Below, piece by piece: positions 4,031-34,466 of a stretch of DNA of 64,000 nt. The stretch is from a virus. The notes under the pieces are model-generated. The model made no database searches, was not told the origin of the DNA, and saw nothing but the letters and a program-made list of their open reading frames with translations. The translations under genes were made by a program, and so were the position numbers. The first letter of the stretch is position 1, and the number at the start of each line of letters is the position of its first letter. The stretch is taken from IMG/VR virus record IMGVR_UViG_3300047160_036265, one strand, 5' to 3'.

Positions 4031-4101
4031 CTGACCCGCCTGGATTCGCACCAGGACTAGGTGATCCAAAGTCACCTGTGCTACTGTTACACCACGGGTC
4101 A
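4031..4101 (-). tRNA. tRNA-Gln(UUG), G55-type T-loop
   Basis: Acceptor UGACCCG/CGGGUCA, anticodon loop CUUUGGA, T-arm CCUGG-UGCGAAU-CCAGG. Confidence 0.65.
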
Positions 4102-4470
4102 TCACCAGACCGGCACCCCCTCCTGGTCCAGATTTAAGAACTCGTGGGGGTCAACCGGCTCAACCCCGCCCAGGATGCCAGAGGAATACAGTACCTCACC
4201 CCGCTCCTGGTGACTGCTTTCAAACCACCAACCGTCCTCGTCTTCATAGACCTTTGTTACCAGAACAATCTGGCCCAGGCTGCGGGGGTGACACGCTCCC
4301 ACCAGGCGAACGTACTCCCTTGGCCTCGGAATGTAGCCGTTCTGTGGGTTCCAGGTGCTATAGTGCCGCATGAATGACCCGACAGTTGAAGCGTAGCTGA
4401 GGCACTTTCTTGCGGTGAATGGCCTCGGCAATGTCATTACGCATTCTACCGTAAGCCCGCTCCAACGCAA
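4102..4470 (-). CDS. hypothetical protein
   Basis: 122-aa ORF on the gene strand. Confidence 0.4.
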   Translation of the reverse strand: MRWSGLTVECVMTLPRPFTARKCLSYASTVGSFMRHYSTWNPQNGYIPRPREYVRLVGACHPRSLGQIVLVTKVYEDEDGWWFESSHQERGEVLYSSGILGGVEPVDPHEFLNLDQEGVPVW

Positions 4471-4744
4471 GGGTAGTCGCCAACTGGTCGGTTGTAACCA
4501 CCGTCACCAGCATGTGTTGTGAATCAGGGGCCGGGACAACGGATTCAACGTAAGCATCCCGCAGGCAATCGTCTGCGCAGCCGGGCAGCATCAGATTGAG
4601 GGTGTCCGCCACCTGGGCGCACAGTTGCAGGGCCTTTCGGTTTATGACCTGCTTGCGACCCGCTCCGTCCCAGCGGGGGTCTTGACCGTCACCCGGCCCC
4701 CACTGCTCGCACAACGCCTCTTTTGGCGACTTGTGGAATTTCAC
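4358..4744 (-). CDS. hypothetical protein
   Basis: 128-aa ORF; overlaps the downstream ORF in another frame, so the start is uncertain. Confidence 0.35.
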   Translation of the reverse strand: MKFHKSPKEALCEQWGPGDGQDPRWDGAGRKQVINRKALQLCAQVADTLNLMLPGCADDCLRDAYVESVVPAPDSQHMLVTVVTTDQLATTLALERAYGRMRNDIAEAIHRKKVPQLRFNCRVIHAAL

Positions 4745-5277
4745 TTTTTCCTCTTCTTCTTGGGAACCGGGAGGGGCTTGGTAGCGCTCGGCGGACCAAC
4801 TATTTCATTGGGCAGCACAACATATACCAGCCCGTTCCACTGTTCTCGAAACTTCTCCTTCGACCACTTCCTTACCTTGAGGGCGTGCGTGCCGGTGTTG
4901 TCGATCACTTTGACAAAATCGCCCTCATAATGGACCAGCACCAGCACATGCCCTGGAACGCCAATGGCACAGCCGTAACCATTCTTGCAGGCCCAGCGTA
5001 TCAGGTGTGTATTATATGTTTTCTTGGGCTGAAAATAAAAGGGAATCTTCTTCGCCATCATGGCCTGGACTGCCCGATCCGGGCCAGCGCCGTGCTTATA
5101 GGCAGGATAGAGTTTGTACCCATTCGGCACCTTATTGTGCAGGCACAGCGTCGTCAGGCTGCACCACACACAACTACCATCCTTGTTCCGAATCCTATGT
5201 TCTTGTTTTACATTTACTTGTGTATCTCCTGGGGTGGCGGCAATTGTTACCGCCAGCAGCATCGCCCACATAACCAA
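4741..5277 (-). CDS. secreted protein, possible cysteine peptidase
   Basis: N-terminal signal-like hydrophobic stretch MVMWAMLLAVTIAA; CVWCSL and GYGCAIGVPGHVLVLVHYEG suggest a Cys/His peptidase; lysine-rich tail. Confidence 0.4.
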   Translation of the reverse strand: MVMWAMLLAVTIAATPGDTQVNVKQEHRIRNKDGSCVWCSLTTLCLHNKVPNGYKLYPAYKHGAGPDRAVQAMMAKKIPFYFQPKKTYNTHLIRWACKNGYGCAIGVPGHVLVLVHYEGDFVKVIDNTGTHALKVRKWSKEKFREQWNGLVYVVLPNEIVGPPSATKPLPVPKKKRKK

Positions 5278-5315
5278 GCGATCCTTTCAAATAGAGCCTT
5301 TCTATTATAAGAGGA

Positions 5316-5501
5316 TCAATCCTGCCGTTTCCGGGTGCAGTAAAAGAAAAATCCCAGGGCGACCACCAGATAGAGAATCATGAGGAGGGCGGTGACGTAC
5401 CAAGGAGCCTGAAAGATTTGGTTGCCCGTGAAGTGTGCTGCCTTGAGGCTGACAAACGCCAGCACCGAAACTGCCACGGCCTGAAACAACCGTTGTTTCA
5501 T
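5316..5501 (-). CDS. small membrane protein
   Basis: Start moved to the internal Met (MKQRLF...) so the ORF does not overlap tRNA-Cys; two predicted TM helices. Confidence 0.35.
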   Translation of the reverse strand: MKQRLFQAVAVSVLAFVSLKAAHFTGNQIFQAPWYVTALLMILYLVVALGFFFYCTRKRQD

Positions 5502-5514
5502 CACGACCCCCAAG

Positions 5515-5583
5515 AGTCTCCGGTAGGAATCGAACCTACAAAGAACGAGTTTGCAGCCCGTCCCGCCGCCTTGACACGGAGAC
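5515..5583 (-). tRNA. tRNA-Cys(GCA)
   Basis: Acceptor GUCUCCG/CGGAGAC, anticodon loop CUGCAAA, T-arm GUAGG-UUCGAUU-CCUAC. Confidence 0.6.
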
Positions 5584-5887
5584 ATTACCGTTGACCGCCA
5601 CCCCTGATCCTTTTATATGTGTCCCAGACAAGAAACAGTGTCCAGATCACGGTCCAAAGGGCGACAGCCAACAGGTATATTACAGCATCTTCGGCCTTCT
5701 CACGCCAATGATTCCAATTCATCCTCGCCAAGCATTTGCCAAAACGGGTTTTCCCCACGCATCTGCCAGAACACTCGATATTGCCAGGTCCACCCGTTCT
5801 CAGCCCACTGCCTCTCCAATATGGTCATTTCCTTGCCGCCCCTGCGGCGCAGTGCCCGCTCGCCAATCTCAAACCTCGGCTGCGGGA

Positions 5888-6166
5888 TTATCCTCCTTGT
5901 TCTAGTTTGACAGCTTTCTGTTTCCATTGCTCTTGTTCCCACTCCTTTATGTTGGAGGTTGTGACATAGTAGCGTTGGCCACAACCTAGACACCAACATT
6001 TTTCGGGGTGGAGAGCGCCGTTTTCAAGACTCCGATACATTTTTACAATACCGGGTCCAATTTGCGGGTCATAACAGTAACGGCACTGACCCTCGTGGGC
6101 GTGAAATTCGATCTCCTCCGGGGCAGCTTTATGCCGCAACAGGGTGCCGATCTTTCGCCGCTTCAT
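5888..6166 (-). CDS. hypothetical Cys-rich protein
   Basis: Start moved to the internal Met (MKRRKIG...) to avoid the tRNA-like element; CRYCYD..CWCLGCG cysteine clusters. Confidence 0.4.
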   Translation of the reverse strand: MKRRKIGTLLRHKAAPEEIEFHAHEGQCRYCYDPQIGPGIVKMYRSLENGALHPEKCWCLGCGQRYYVTTSNIKEWEQEQWKQKAVKLEQGG

Positions 6167-6184
6167 GACATTCTCCAAGTGCGA

Positions 6185-6262
6185 CCGCCGGGACTCGAAC
6201 CCAGACTTCAGCTTCCGGTAGCGCAAAGTGCATAGCTGCGTGCTGCCTACTAGGGGTTCACG
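6185..6262 (-). tRNA. tRNA-like element (acceptor pairing unresolved)
   Basis: T-loop signature GGGUUCGAGUCCC and a D-arm-like segment; a canonical acceptor stem could not be built by eye. Confidence 0.3.
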
Positions 6263-6448
6263 GGTTGGGTACTCAACAGCCTATTTCGGACGCCTACTGA
6301 CTCCTTGCTCCCATCGGCCTGTCGGCCCTTTCAGCCGCTCACGGTTTTTAAGGTTGCCCTTTGCGCTGTTACCGATGATCCTGGGGAGGGTTCGGACGGC
6401 CCTTTACTGCTGCCTTTCGACAAACCGCTACTACCTTCGCTATTCACA

Positions 6449-33417: not shown

Positions 33418-33424
33418 TCATCAG

Positions 33425-33497
33425 TCGGGGAGGCCGGAGTCGCACCGGCAATCCCGTGGTTCCGATCCACGGAGGTTACTATCAACCCTTCTCCCCG
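33425..33497 (-). tRNA. tRNA-Pro(CGG) #2, G55-type T-loop
   Basis: Acceptor CGGGGAG/CUCCCCG, anticodon arm CGUGG-AUCGGAA-CCACG, T-arm GCCGG-UGCGACU-CCGGC. Confidence 0.55.
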
Positions 33498-33501
33498 CAA
33501 G

Positions 33502-33574
33502 CGGTCACGACGAGAGTTGAACTCGCTCTTCTACCTTGACAGGGTAGCGTGCTAAACCGTTACACTACGCGACC
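33502..33574 (-). tRNA. tRNA-Asp(GUC)
   Basis: Acceptor GGUCGCG/CGUGACC, D-arm GUGU-AACGGUUUA-GCAC, anticodon arm CUACC-CUGUCAA-GGUAG, T-arm GCGAG-UUCAACU-CUCGU. Confidence 0.65.
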
Positions 33575-33580
33575 TTGAGG

Positions 33581-33653
33581 GTGTCCGATGGGACTCGAAC
33601 CCACTAATTCCAGGTTCACAGCCTGGACCCTCGACCACTTCGGGATCGGACAC
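33581..33653 (-). tRNA. tRNA-His(GUG) #2 with G-1
   Basis: G-1 then acceptor UGUCCGA/UCGGACA, discriminator C, anticodon arm CCAGG-CUGUGAA-CCUGG, T-arm GUGGG-UUCGAGU-CCCAU. Confidence 0.65.
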
Positions 33654-33655
33654 AG

Positions 33656-33739
33656 AATCGGCGGTGGGACTTGCACCCACGAGAGGTTTACACCTGCTGG
33701 TTTTGCAGACCAGTGCCTTCGCTACTCGGCCACGCCGAC
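33656..33739 (-). tRNA. class II (Ser/Leu-like body, long variable arm) tRNA with anticodon GCA
   Basis: Acceptor GUCGGCG/CGCCGAU, D-region GUGGCCGAGUAGCGAAGGCAC (compare tRNA-Ser GUGGCCGAGCGGUUGAAGGCAC), anticodon arm CUGGU-CUGCAAA-ACCAG, variable arm AGGU-GUAA-ACCU, T-arm GUGGG-UGCAAGU-CCCAC. Confidence 0.5.
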
Positions 33740-33770
33740 CTCTTCTTACTTCCAAATTGTCAAAGAGCAG

Positions 33771-33812
33771 ACCAACAAAAAAACCCTACCCAGGTTGCAC
33801 CTGGGTAGGGTT
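33771..33812 (-). terminator. Rho-independent terminator (gene strand)
   Basis: On the minus strand AACCCUACCCAGG-UGCA-ACCUGGGUAGGGUU is followed by UUUUUUUGUU; separates the upstream region from the tRNA array. Confidence 0.6.
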
Positions 33813-34396
33813 ACACGAGTCTCACTCTCGTTCACCGGCCCAGGTTCTTTCGCCACCTGAGCCGGGTCGTGCTTCGACCGATTACGGCTCAGGGCTTGCG
33901 GGGGTATTATCCCCACAACGACGTTCGGCGGCGGGCTTGCTACCCGTCGCGCACGTCGGGCGCTGTGGCTGATGCCACTGCGCCTGTTTGCCGGTAATCT
34001 GCACGAAGTACGACACGTTCATTGTCTCCTTTACCGGCGTGACCCCTTTGGTCACTACCGGCTGGAGCCGAGTTGCCTCGGCCTTGCAAGTCTCGCTGCG
34101 GGAACCACTCCCGCTATGTACTAGATACCTGAGCCGCCAAAACGGTCAGGATTTTTTCGGAAAAAACAGGTGAGGCCCTTTCGCGCCGCCCACTCTTTCG
34201 AGTTGCCCTAGCTCCTTTCGGAGACGGGGCCTTTCGCCTACGTCGCCCCGTTTTGAGCGGGTTCGACTTCGGCGTGGTGTCGGCTTGCGATTAGCGGGCC
34301 TCACCTGTTTCTACGGCATCGGTTTGTTTTTTTCCTGAGCCTCGGTCTATCGTTTCCATAGCCTTGGCCGACAGGTTTTACCTCTGCCGCAGAAGT
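33813..34396 (-). ncRNA. large structured noncoding region, candidate ncRNA (identity unknown)
   Basis: About 585 nt with no ORF over 60 aa, many UUCG/GNRA-type hairpins (cctttcgg, ctcctttcggag, gacttcggcg), and a long-range pair aaaacaggtgaggccc (about 34160) with gggcctcacctgtt (about 34297). Confidence 0.3.
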
Positions 34397-34466
34397 TGCC
34401 GGGGCTGGAATTGCACCAGCGTCTTCAGGTTATGAGCCTGATAAGGTAACTACTCCTCCACCCGGC
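34397..34466 (-). tRNA. tRNA-Met(CAU) (or Ile2), G55-type T-loop
   Basis: Acceptor GCCGGGU/CCCCGGC, anticodon arm UCAGG-CUCAUAA-CCUGA, T-arm GCUGG-UGCAAUU-CCAGC. Confidence 0.55.

Follow-up and report, generated by a model that had tools for sequence, protein, structure and literature searches.

Analysis of a 64,000-nt stretch of the IMG/VR virus record IMGVR_UViG_3300047160_036265 (the whole stretch is referred to below as the window) revealed 12 transfer RNA (tRNA) genes in which the T-loop reads U54-G55-C56-R57-A58 and the D-loop carries A at position 18. Positions 18 and 55 covary, and these genes probably encode functional tRNAs in which one tertiary pair has been swapped for another in a compensated manner. 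The variants are located on the minus strand, as are one permuted tRNA-like element with the same combination and every other tRNA of the window (in total, variants included, 48 detected by ARAGORN and a few by Rfam only), and the tRNAs alternate with minus-strand open reading frames (ORFs). The variants represent 12 of about 52 window tRNAs (23%); the remaining tRNAs, about 36, have TTC in the T-loop, except for two tRNA-Thr genes with TCC.

The first-pass annotation of this DNA had listed about ten such loops, nine of them in tRNAs and one in the tRNA-like element at 3806–3890. The nine tRNAs were recovered with ARAGORN and Rfam on the minus strand and the element was confirmed from its sequence, but the count was too low, since tRNA-Val(UAC) at 3502–3574 and tRNA-Val(GAC) at 29352–29423 had been missed. 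The variants fold into a cloverleaf with a 7-bp acceptor stem, a D-arm, a 7-nt anticodon loop, a 5-bp T-stem, and a 7-nt T-loop. The T-stems had been described as intact, and 5 bp were indeed found in 12 of 12 tRNAs, with 4 bp and one mismatch in the element. ARAGORN detected 11 of the 12 variants, the Ala-like gene being found by Rfam only. The Rfam scores of the reported variants were 39.9–57.8 bits, compared with a gathering score of 29. The default Rfam run overlooked 2 of the 12, which is relevant for annotation of such tRNAs. The core sequence GTGCRANTC occurred 18 times in the window, with 14 occurrences on the tRNA strand; the expected number was 4.6 ± 2.2, and none of 100 shuffles reached 18.

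The Val(UAC) gene (ARAGORN; Rfam, 44.9 bits; D-loop CAGCAGCTAC with A18 and G19, T-loop TGCAAGT) and the Val(GAC) gene (ARAGORN; Rfam, 52.8 bits; AACAGTA/TGCGACT) are the only window tRNAs with their respective anticodons. Both Gln variants, namely tRNA-Gln(UUG) at 4030–4101 (ARAGORN; Rfam, 57.8 bits) and tRNA-Gln(CUG) at 32710–32781, have the loops AACAGTA/TGCGAAT, and a canonical gene with the same anticodon is also present in each case (3919–3990 and 32560–32631, respectively). For three variants, a canonical window tRNA is a clear paralog, with an unusual D-arm in common save for A or G at position 18. These are tRNA-Glu(UUC) at 30119–30190 (AGCAGCA/TGCAAAT), a paralog of the canonical Glu-CUC at 3409; tRNA-Glu(CUC) at 31456–31528 (TCGAGTGA/TGCGACT), a paralog of the canonical Glu-UUC at 32091, whose odd D-loop matches but contains GG; and tRNA-Pro(CGG) at 33424–33497 (TGATAGTA/TGCGACT), a paralog of the canonical Pro-GGG at 26048, in which the D-arm is alike but contains GG. 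The set also includes tRNA-Asn(GUU) at 31876–31948 (TAAAGTA/TGCGAGT), the tRNA-Ala-like gene with anticodon GGC at 30830–30900 (Rfam, 48.6 bits; AACAGGA/TGCGACT), and the 85-nt tRNA-Cys(GCA) at 33655–33739 (ARAGORN; Rfam, 52.1 bits; GAGTAGCGAA/TGCAAGT). The initiator-like tRNA-Met(CAU) at 34395–34467 (AGTAGTTA/TGCAATT) is the sole initiator-like tRNA in the window and is 79% identical to an initiator tRNA of Saccharibacteria (L122).

The search for the core sequence also returned an orphan T-arm-like hairpin at 39806–39822 on the minus strand (ACAGG-TGCAACT-CCTGT) with no recognizable cloverleaf around it, whose membership in the class is uncertain, and a match at 7094–7102, which was rejected as a chance match at an ORF start. 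As a separate observation, the variable arm of the variant tRNA-Cys is long and class-II-like; Cys tRNAs with related D- and T-loops were found in the phage and array loci L037 (87 nt, also long), L164, L199, and L229.

The first-pass annotation had proposed checking whether the D-loop positions G18 and G19 covary with the T-loop. The D-loop of 12 of 12 UGC tRNAs reads AG where the TTC tRNAs read GG; thus, every variant has A18, with G19 and C56 left as they are in the canonical form. The canonical G18·U55 pair, in which U55 is pseudouridine (Psi), was absent, and A18·G55 was found instead in all variants of the window (12 of 12) and in 334 of the 339 sequences of the pooled set, whereas the G19:C56 pair was retained, with D-loop A-G and C56 in all variants. 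The element at 3806–3890 likewise combines A18 with G55 in a tRNA-shaped module. The presence of A18 in every UGC tRNA together with the preservation of G19 points to a concerted swap of G18·Psi55 for A18·G55 rather than decay.

The association was calculated for the tRNAs of the fetched IMG/VR loci other than those picked by the D-loop/T-loop pattern. Among these, 69 tRNAs combined TGC with AG and no GG, 4 combined TGC with GG, none combined TTC with AG, and 383 combined TTC with GG (Fisher p = 1.4e-77). When IMG/VR was scanned with both positions 18 and 55 left as N, the tRNAs obtained were G/U (101) and G/C (2), with no mixed states. The complete control scans of IMG/VR returned 30 chance matches and no tRNAs for G18+G55, and 102 matches including 7 tRNAs for A18+U55; the scan for A18+G55 returned at least 120 matches, including at least 67 tRNAs. 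In addition, 20 pairs of tRNAs at least 80% identical but differing in state were detected among 1421 unique tRNAs. The best minimal pairs were 82–90% identical and differed at exactly positions 18 and 55; they came from at least five tRNA families, including initiator-like Met (90% identical), elongator Met of the Candidate Phyla Radiation (CPR), Leu-GAG, Trp, and Gln.

Apart from these two positions, the T-loop invariants, the stems, and the identity elements are preserved. In 339 unique variant tRNAs, U54, C56, A58, and the G53:C61 pair were each present in 100% of sequences, R57 and Y60 were kept, and T-stem pairing was 99.1%, compared with 98.6% in 621 canonical tRNAs. The spectra of the T-stem pairs 49:65, 50:64, and 51:63 were similar in both groups in terms of pair counts. 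The shifts relative to canonical tRNAs concerned R57, which was A more often (58% vs 24%), N17, shifted toward C, and pair 52:62, shifted toward G:C. Identity elements fit the anticodons: U73 in Cys; G3:U70 and A73 in Ala; U1:A72 and G73 in Gln and Asn; C1:G72 and A73 in Pro; A73 in Val; and, in the variant Met, the C1·A72 mismatch, which is the initiator signature. In the window, Val-UAC, Val-GAC, Ala-GGC, and the sole initiator-like tRNA occur in the variant state only, and seven other anticodons are present in both states.

Relatives of the genome were obtained from one metagenome scan with the PolIII-alpha-like gene that adjoins the tRNA cluster. Three close relatives were found (78–83% amino acid identity in this gene), two of which, L368 and L369 (78%), hold a syntenic tRNA cluster. 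The variant state was kept in five relative orthologs, namely initiator Met, Glu-CUC, Asn, Glu-UUC, and Val-GAC, the last of which is 99% identical in L368. Several of these orthologs differ from the window genes by compensatory double substitutions. The L368 ortholog of Glu-CUC has a 3-bp change in the anticodon stem (CTTGG/CCAAG vs CCACG/CGTGG), that of Asn has changes in both the D-stem and the anticodon stem, the Glu-UUC orthologs in L368 and L369 changed at acceptor pair 4:69 and T-stem pair 52:62, and the initiator Met orthologs in L368/L369 changed in the T-stem (GCTGG/CCAGC vs GGCAG/CTGCC). State switches were also observed. Lys-UUU is canonical in the window and variant at the syntenic position in L368, whereas Ala-GGC is variant in the window and canonical in L368 at 7588–7658 (AAAGGGA/TTCGAGT); at both switched positions, 18 and 55 change together.

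From this conservation and these compensatory changes, the variants probably function in translation. The view of the first-pass annotation that the loops represent a conserved structural variant and not decay was thus borne out by the invariant positions, the stems, and the changes in orthologs, and the variants are not confined to clear pseudogenes. The sequences also indicate that purifying selection maintains the variant, both in this phage lineage and in other large phages, mobile arrays, and CPR initiators, and the design arose or was exchanged repeatedly.

Two peculiarities of these genes were noted alongside. The Ala-like(GGC) gene at 30830–30900 has C33 in place of the universal U33 (anticodon loop UCGGCAG), and this odd loop is common to it and its L368 ortholog despite the differing elbows. 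In the relatives, the anticodon of the variant initiator Met ortholog (L368, 3845–3939) is interrupted by 21 inserted nt that separate C34 from A35. Insert-bearing tRNAs of 84–94 nt are also present on the minus strand of the window at 12743–12835, 22908–22991, 40859–40952, and 3681–3769 (the insertion in the last is 19 nt), with insertions that lie within the anticodon loop or the variable region or close to them, which suggests small introns or disrupted genes.

Beyond this genome, the variant accounted for 4 of 573 tRNAs (about 0.7%) in neutrally chosen viral loci. In the large IMG/VR contigs L035, L068, L104, and L117, almost all tRNAs were variant. In GTDB assemblies, the pattern matched dense arrays, chiefly in Verrucomicrobiota and Planctomycetota and also in Myxococcota and cyanobacteria; examples of the variant share in arrays are 11 of 14 on chromosome OY970277, 12 of 15 in OZ257259, and 25 of 26 in L233. 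In at least 14 CPR metagenome-assembled genomes (MAGs) belonging to Saccharibacteria, Paceibacteria, Taylorbacteria, and Zambryskibacteria, with contigs of up to 674 kb, the initiator-type tRNA is of the variant kind. These CPR initiators have an N1·A72 mismatch and the anticodon arm CAGGCUCAUAACCUG, and they occur beside a canonical elongator tRNA-Met. The same paired change was present in independent assemblies from ENA, JGI, and GenBank.

A single A18/G55 tRNA was found in the Anabaena trn operon, namely Glu-CUC at 3007–3084 of L246 (NC_003273, plasmid delta of Nostoc/Anabaena PCC 7120; AAATAAGATAA/TGCAACT). According to the paper on this array, 23 of its 26 tRNAs are aminoacylated in vivo, and the text leaves the three exceptions or pseudogenes unnamed. 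This tRNA-Glu might serve as a laboratory model of such tRNAs.

Other non-canonical T-loops were also encountered. The two window tRNA-Thr genes at 25973–26044 and 27509–27580 (minus strand) have T-loops of a third type, U54-C55-C56 (TCCGATT), combined with the normal G18G19. Such C55 loops represent about 2% of neutrally sampled viral tRNAs (12 of 573) and also occur in the uncultured 595-kb phage genome LR756511 and in a Taylorbacteria MAG. Two tRNAs of LR756511.1 (L365), at 11985–12058 and 14111–14183, have an A54 T-loop, ATCGAAA; such ATC loops, also about 2% of the neutral viral sample, are another recurrent non-canonical class.

The covariation can be interpreted in terms of the known elbow structure. 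In canonical tRNAs, G18 intercalates between positions 57 and 58 and forms one hydrogen bond to Psi55, and G19:C56 forms an exposed platform (PMC4810234); single G18-U55 mutations inactivated a yeast tRNA (PMC4117946). The D/T-loop module can be superimposed on GNRA tetraloops, whose G·A is located where U55-G18 sits (PMC10484739), and a G-N-R triloop with an adenosine intercalating from another strand is a documented GNRA-like topology in the FMN riboswitch and the ATP aptamer (PMC12550061). We propose that A18·G55 replaces G18·Psi55 as a unit between the D-loop and the T-loop, with the rest of the elbow kept: U54·A58 as the reverse-Hoogsteen pair, G19:C56 as the outer platform, G53:C61 as the closing pair, and both R57 and Y60. 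In this arrangement, G55-C56-R57 would form a triloop closed by U54·A58, and A18 of the D-loop would intercalate between R57 and A58 and pair with G55 in the manner of the GNRA G·A pair, so that U54, G55, C56, R57, A18, and A58 would map to n1, n2, n3, n4, n5, and n6, respectively.

By analogy, we regard such a GNRA-type fold assembled in trans as the somewhat favored geometry, and at the sequence level its components, U54-G55-C56-R57-A58 plus A18, are all present. The fold would explain why G55 requires A18, why no tRNAs with G18+G55 were detected, and why A18+U55 is rare but tolerated, the latter being a plausible evolutionary intermediate. With no U at position 55 and A at position 18, neither Psi55 nor Gm18 can form; therefore, such tRNAs would have no need of TruB or TrmH at these two positions. 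The first-pass annotation had deduced a loss of both T54 and Psi55 modification. This follows for Psi55 and does not follow for T54, because U54 (the m5U substrate) and A58 are invariant in the variants; the G19:C56 surface is intact as well. TruB, TrmA, and other T-loop enzymes were not detected among the 30 window ORFs scanned against Pfam, PHROGs, and NCBIfam.

Several points weigh against the reading of these genes as functional tRNAs with a compensated elbow. Acceptor pairing is lower in the variants (92%) than in canonical tRNAs (95.5%). The sheared G55·A18 geometry is a proposal from sequence and analogy, and the expression, aminoacylation, and structure of the members are likewise predictions from their genes. 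The only characterized natural tRNAs with G55, the staphylococcal non-proteogenic (NP) tRNA-Gly, are deliberately poor in translation. The CPR initiators are no proof that the variant elbow is compatible with EF-Tu and the A site, because initiators bind IF2 and the P site. None of the variants was present in about 110 tRNAs of the phages Priamo, KVP40, and phiCbK and of LR756511, and the class thus has no experimental model, except possibly the Anabaena tRNA-Glu(CUC). Similarly, blastn searches of INPHARED with the window variants and with a 4.1-kb concatenate of diverse variants revealed no cultured phage carrying the variant; all matches (Aeromonas AP1, Komagataeibacter phiKX1, Pseudomonas Y6, Mycobacterium phage Priamo, KVP40, phiCbK, and LR756511) were canonical tRNAs.

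With regard to the origin of the class, one explanation, which we put a little short of an even chance, is that of a neutral isosteric variant, in which an equally good elbow arises rarely via A18/U55 and is then propagated through descent, duplication, and the horizontal movement of arrays. It is a rival on cause only and is compatible with the structural explanation given above. The rare A18/U55 tRNAs do exist (the 7 from all of IMG/VR in this frame and a few in the unbiased sample), the state flips in both directions between close relatives, variant and canonical tRNAs are interspersed within one cluster, and the class is clustered by lineage. However, a share of about 0.7% overall and of 23–96% in some genomes (the window, the array L233, L035, and L068) is hard to reach by drift alone across unrelated isoacceptors, and both states are maintained for seven anticodons of the window.

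This duplication of seven anticodons across states would be expected if the elbow insulated the tRNAs of mobile elements, either shielding them from factors that read or cut the U54-U55 T-loop or freeing them from the need for TruB, TrmH, or modification, with both states per anticodon serving as bet-hedging. This is our tentative guess at the reason for selection, held at well below an even chance and about as likely as the neutral alternative. The T-loop tRNase CdiA-CT E479 makes its cut at the junction of the conserved T and Psi (PMC9086364), the escape of phage tRNAs from anticodon nucleases through loop changes is known, phages and mobile arrays are enriched for the variant, and the window encodes a PNK/phosphatase and Ro60, proteins of RNA repair and surveillance. 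On the other hand, no T-loop-targeting anti-phage system was identified here or tied to these hosts, most phage tRNAs are canonical and hence still exposed, and CPR cells use the variant in a housekeeping initiator. The more far-reaching proposal, that A18·G55 is a second, pseudouridine-independent natural elbow of the GNRA type in trans, positively selected in mobile tRNA sets for evasion of host enzymes or nucleases and used in CPR initiators for a related reason, should be regarded as speculative and rather unlikely. If it is true, the elbow would be a natural handle for tRNA orthogonality and a new axis of phage–host conflict outside the anticodon loop. The simpler idea of the first-pass annotation, a mark distinguishing phage tRNAs from host tRNAs, finds no support in the form proposed, since canonical tRNAs outnumber variants about threefold in the phage itself, in many cases with a shared anticodon, and the variant is also cellular, occurring in CPR initiators and in chromosomal arrays of Verrucomicrobiota and Planctomycetota.

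A role outside translation, as in the staphylococcal NP tRNA-Gly, would mean that the variants are kept off EF-Tu and the ribosome and act as amino acid donors elsewhere or as decoys. The only characterized natural UGC/UGU tRNAs do behave in this way (PMC7826273), but the explanation is improbable for the present class, which covers eleven specificities including the initiator, provides the only copy of three anticodons and of the initiator in the window, keeps G19:C56 unlike the NP tRNAs, has a T-stem pair spectrum resembling the canonical one, and serves as the CPR initiator; furthermore, the ORFs scanned yielded no Fem-like transferase. Pseudogene decay and an artefact of assembly, suggested by such odd neighbors as truncated or insert-bearing tRNAs and the orphan T-arm at 39806–39822, were rejected as having a negligible chance, given the intact stems, kept invariants, identity elements, compensatory substitutions in orthologs, and recurrence of the paired change in assemblies from ENA, JGI, and GenBank.

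The compensated swap in functional tRNAs thus remains our preferred reading of the tRNA genes, and the variant elbow was also found outside a regular cloverleaf. The permuted tRNA-like element at 3806–3890 (minus strand), described from its sequence and minimum free energy (MFE) folds, consists of a closing stem (ACCGCU/GGUGGU), a T-arm (TGCGAAT), a 7-bp acceptor-like hairpin with a UUCG cap, and a D-arm (TAACAGTA), in this order. Its D- and T-arm sequences resemble those of the tRNA-Gln at 4030, and its MFE fold is no more stable than shuffles (z = -0.3). The order of T-arm, acceptor-like stem-loop, and D-arm is that of the YrlA Y RNA, in which the acceptor-like stem of M. smegmatis is 7 bp; YrlA is known from phages that encode Ro60 (PMC4201824). 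The element is therefore possibly YrlA-like in its module order, its 7-bp acceptor-like stem, and its location in a genome with Ro60. It differs in its distance from the Ro60 gene, which is encoded on the same strand but about 48 kb away and not within about 4 kb, as well as in its A18/G55 elbow, where YrlA has a U55 modified by TruB. Visual inspection of the 5' flank of the element did not reveal the Ro60-binding motif GNCGAAN0-1G, and no Rfam match was obtained at E ≤ 10, although the presence of a YrlA model in the library was not confirmed.

The Ro60/TROVE gene is located at 51570–53588 on the minus strand (Pfam PF05731, 5.5e-23; PHROG "RNA-binding protein"), and its product is a possible protein partner of the element; no Ro60 relatives were found in IMG/VR. 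Two tRNA-Arg genes lie directly downstream of it. A PNK/3'-phosphatase gene is present at 61225–62382 (minus strand). Taken together, Ro60, the PNK/3'-phosphatase, about 50 tRNAs, and the YrlA-like element suggest a module of RNA surveillance and repair.

Two further unusual tRNAs were noted in the window. A tRNA-like gene at 29738–29809 (minus strand; Rfam, 45.4 bits; not reported by ARAGORN) has an 8-nt anticodon loop (ACUUUAGA), the D-loop TAACGTCAT, and the T-loop TTTAACT, without G18G19 and C56, and might act as a frameshift- or stop-reading tRNA. A tRNA of L369 (8840–8912) also has the D-loop TAACGTCAT, with the T-loop TTCAACT, and ARAGORN assigns a 4-base anticodon to it. The tRNA-Asn at 40444–40512 (minus strand) is only 69 nt long, has a D-loop of 5 nt and an unusual anticodon, AUU, and is 97% conserved in L367 (6268–6336).

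The genome is giant-phage-like and has its own translation toolkit. The GC content of the window is 55–60%. The set of phage translation factors on the minus strand comprises, in the ORFs at 211–1563, 8375–9151, 21298–21996, and 24683–25861, LysRS, which scores above the curated cutoff, full-length EF-Tu (614 bits), a 258-aa AlaRS-like fragment, and a 232-aa TrpRS-like fragment (not listed in order of position), together with a short CysRS of 404 aa (56106–57320; 333 bits, just below the NCBIfam cutoff of 340). The overlap of these phage aminoacyl-tRNA synthetase genes with the variant set, Cys and Ala, was no greater than expected by chance. Other ORF products include the PolIII-alpha-like protein, an NAD-ligase, and sigma-like factors, in addition to the Ro60 and PNK/phosphatase proteins described above. 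Adjoining ThiF-family (E1-like) and JAB-domain genes (43049–43783 and 43983–44996, minus strand) form a ubiquitin-like conjugation/deconjugation pair. One window protein was also found in an ENA soil-type metagenome contig, and no close relatives among INPHARED phages were detected by megablast.

Comparison with known systems placed the variants close to canonical tRNAs of the family RF00005, with which they share the cloverleaf, the 7-nt T-loop, U54·A58, G19:C56, G53:C61, the anticodon loops, and the identity elements; they differ in always having G55 and A18 together and not U/Psi55 and G18. The likeness to the GNRA fold in trans lies in the G-N-R sequence and in an adenosine that would stack under R and pair with G. 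The differences are that the closing pair of the variants would be the reverse-Hoogsteen U54·A58 and not a Watson–Crick pair, and that the N position (C56) would also take part in a long-range Watson–Crick pair with G19.

The staphylococcal NP tRNA-Gly (NP1-3 of S. aureus; Ia/Ib of S. epidermidis) resemble the variants in having UGC for UUC and no Psi55. They have a UGC/UGU T-loop and D at position 19, bind EF-Tu·GTP as well as ribosomes poorly, and serve Fem transferases (PMC7826273). These tRNAs are restricted to Gly(UCC) and to staphylococci, have a uridine (D) at 19 and no G19:C56 pair, and avoid EF-Tu and the ribosome, whereas the variants keep G19:C56, have strictly A at 18, extend to all isoacceptor families and initiators, and have ordinary-looking T-stems. 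None of the eleven specificities among the window variants is Gly, and a Fem-like domain was not found in the 30 ORFs scanned, in which small ORFs were only partly covered. The Anabaena PCC 7120 trn operon, which belongs to the long, horizontally transferred arrays (L-arrays), is similar in representing a dense supernumerary tRNA set on mobile DNA; however, 23 of 24 tRNAs in that array are canonical, and here the genome is phage-like and the tRNAs are interspersed with ORFs.

The paper on L-arrays makes no mention of the elbow variant, a review of T-loop modification gives no G55 exception, and no description of the paired A18+G55 variant was found in the open full-text literature, subscription-only literature being outside the search. 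Thus, G55 was already known from staphylococcal tRNA-Gly, and the A18-paired class spanning all isoacceptors was not found reported. The rarity of the class among tRNAs (about 1%) would explain why a second elbow has gone unrecognized. The G18-U55 pair is usually treated as invariant. Here, hundreds of intact natural tRNAs, from every amino acid family looked at, lack U55 and are compensated by A18, and some of them are the sole initiator-type tRNA seen in CPR genome fragments. For structural biology, the class offers a clean natural covariation to explain; for the tRNA modification field, substrates that would bypass TruB and TrmH; for phage biology, a testable idea of conflict at the tRNA level beyond the anticodon loop; and for synthetic biology, what may be an orthogonal tRNA scaffold. 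These tRNAs suggest that there is an alternative way to build the elbow, which has been used repeatedly in evolution.

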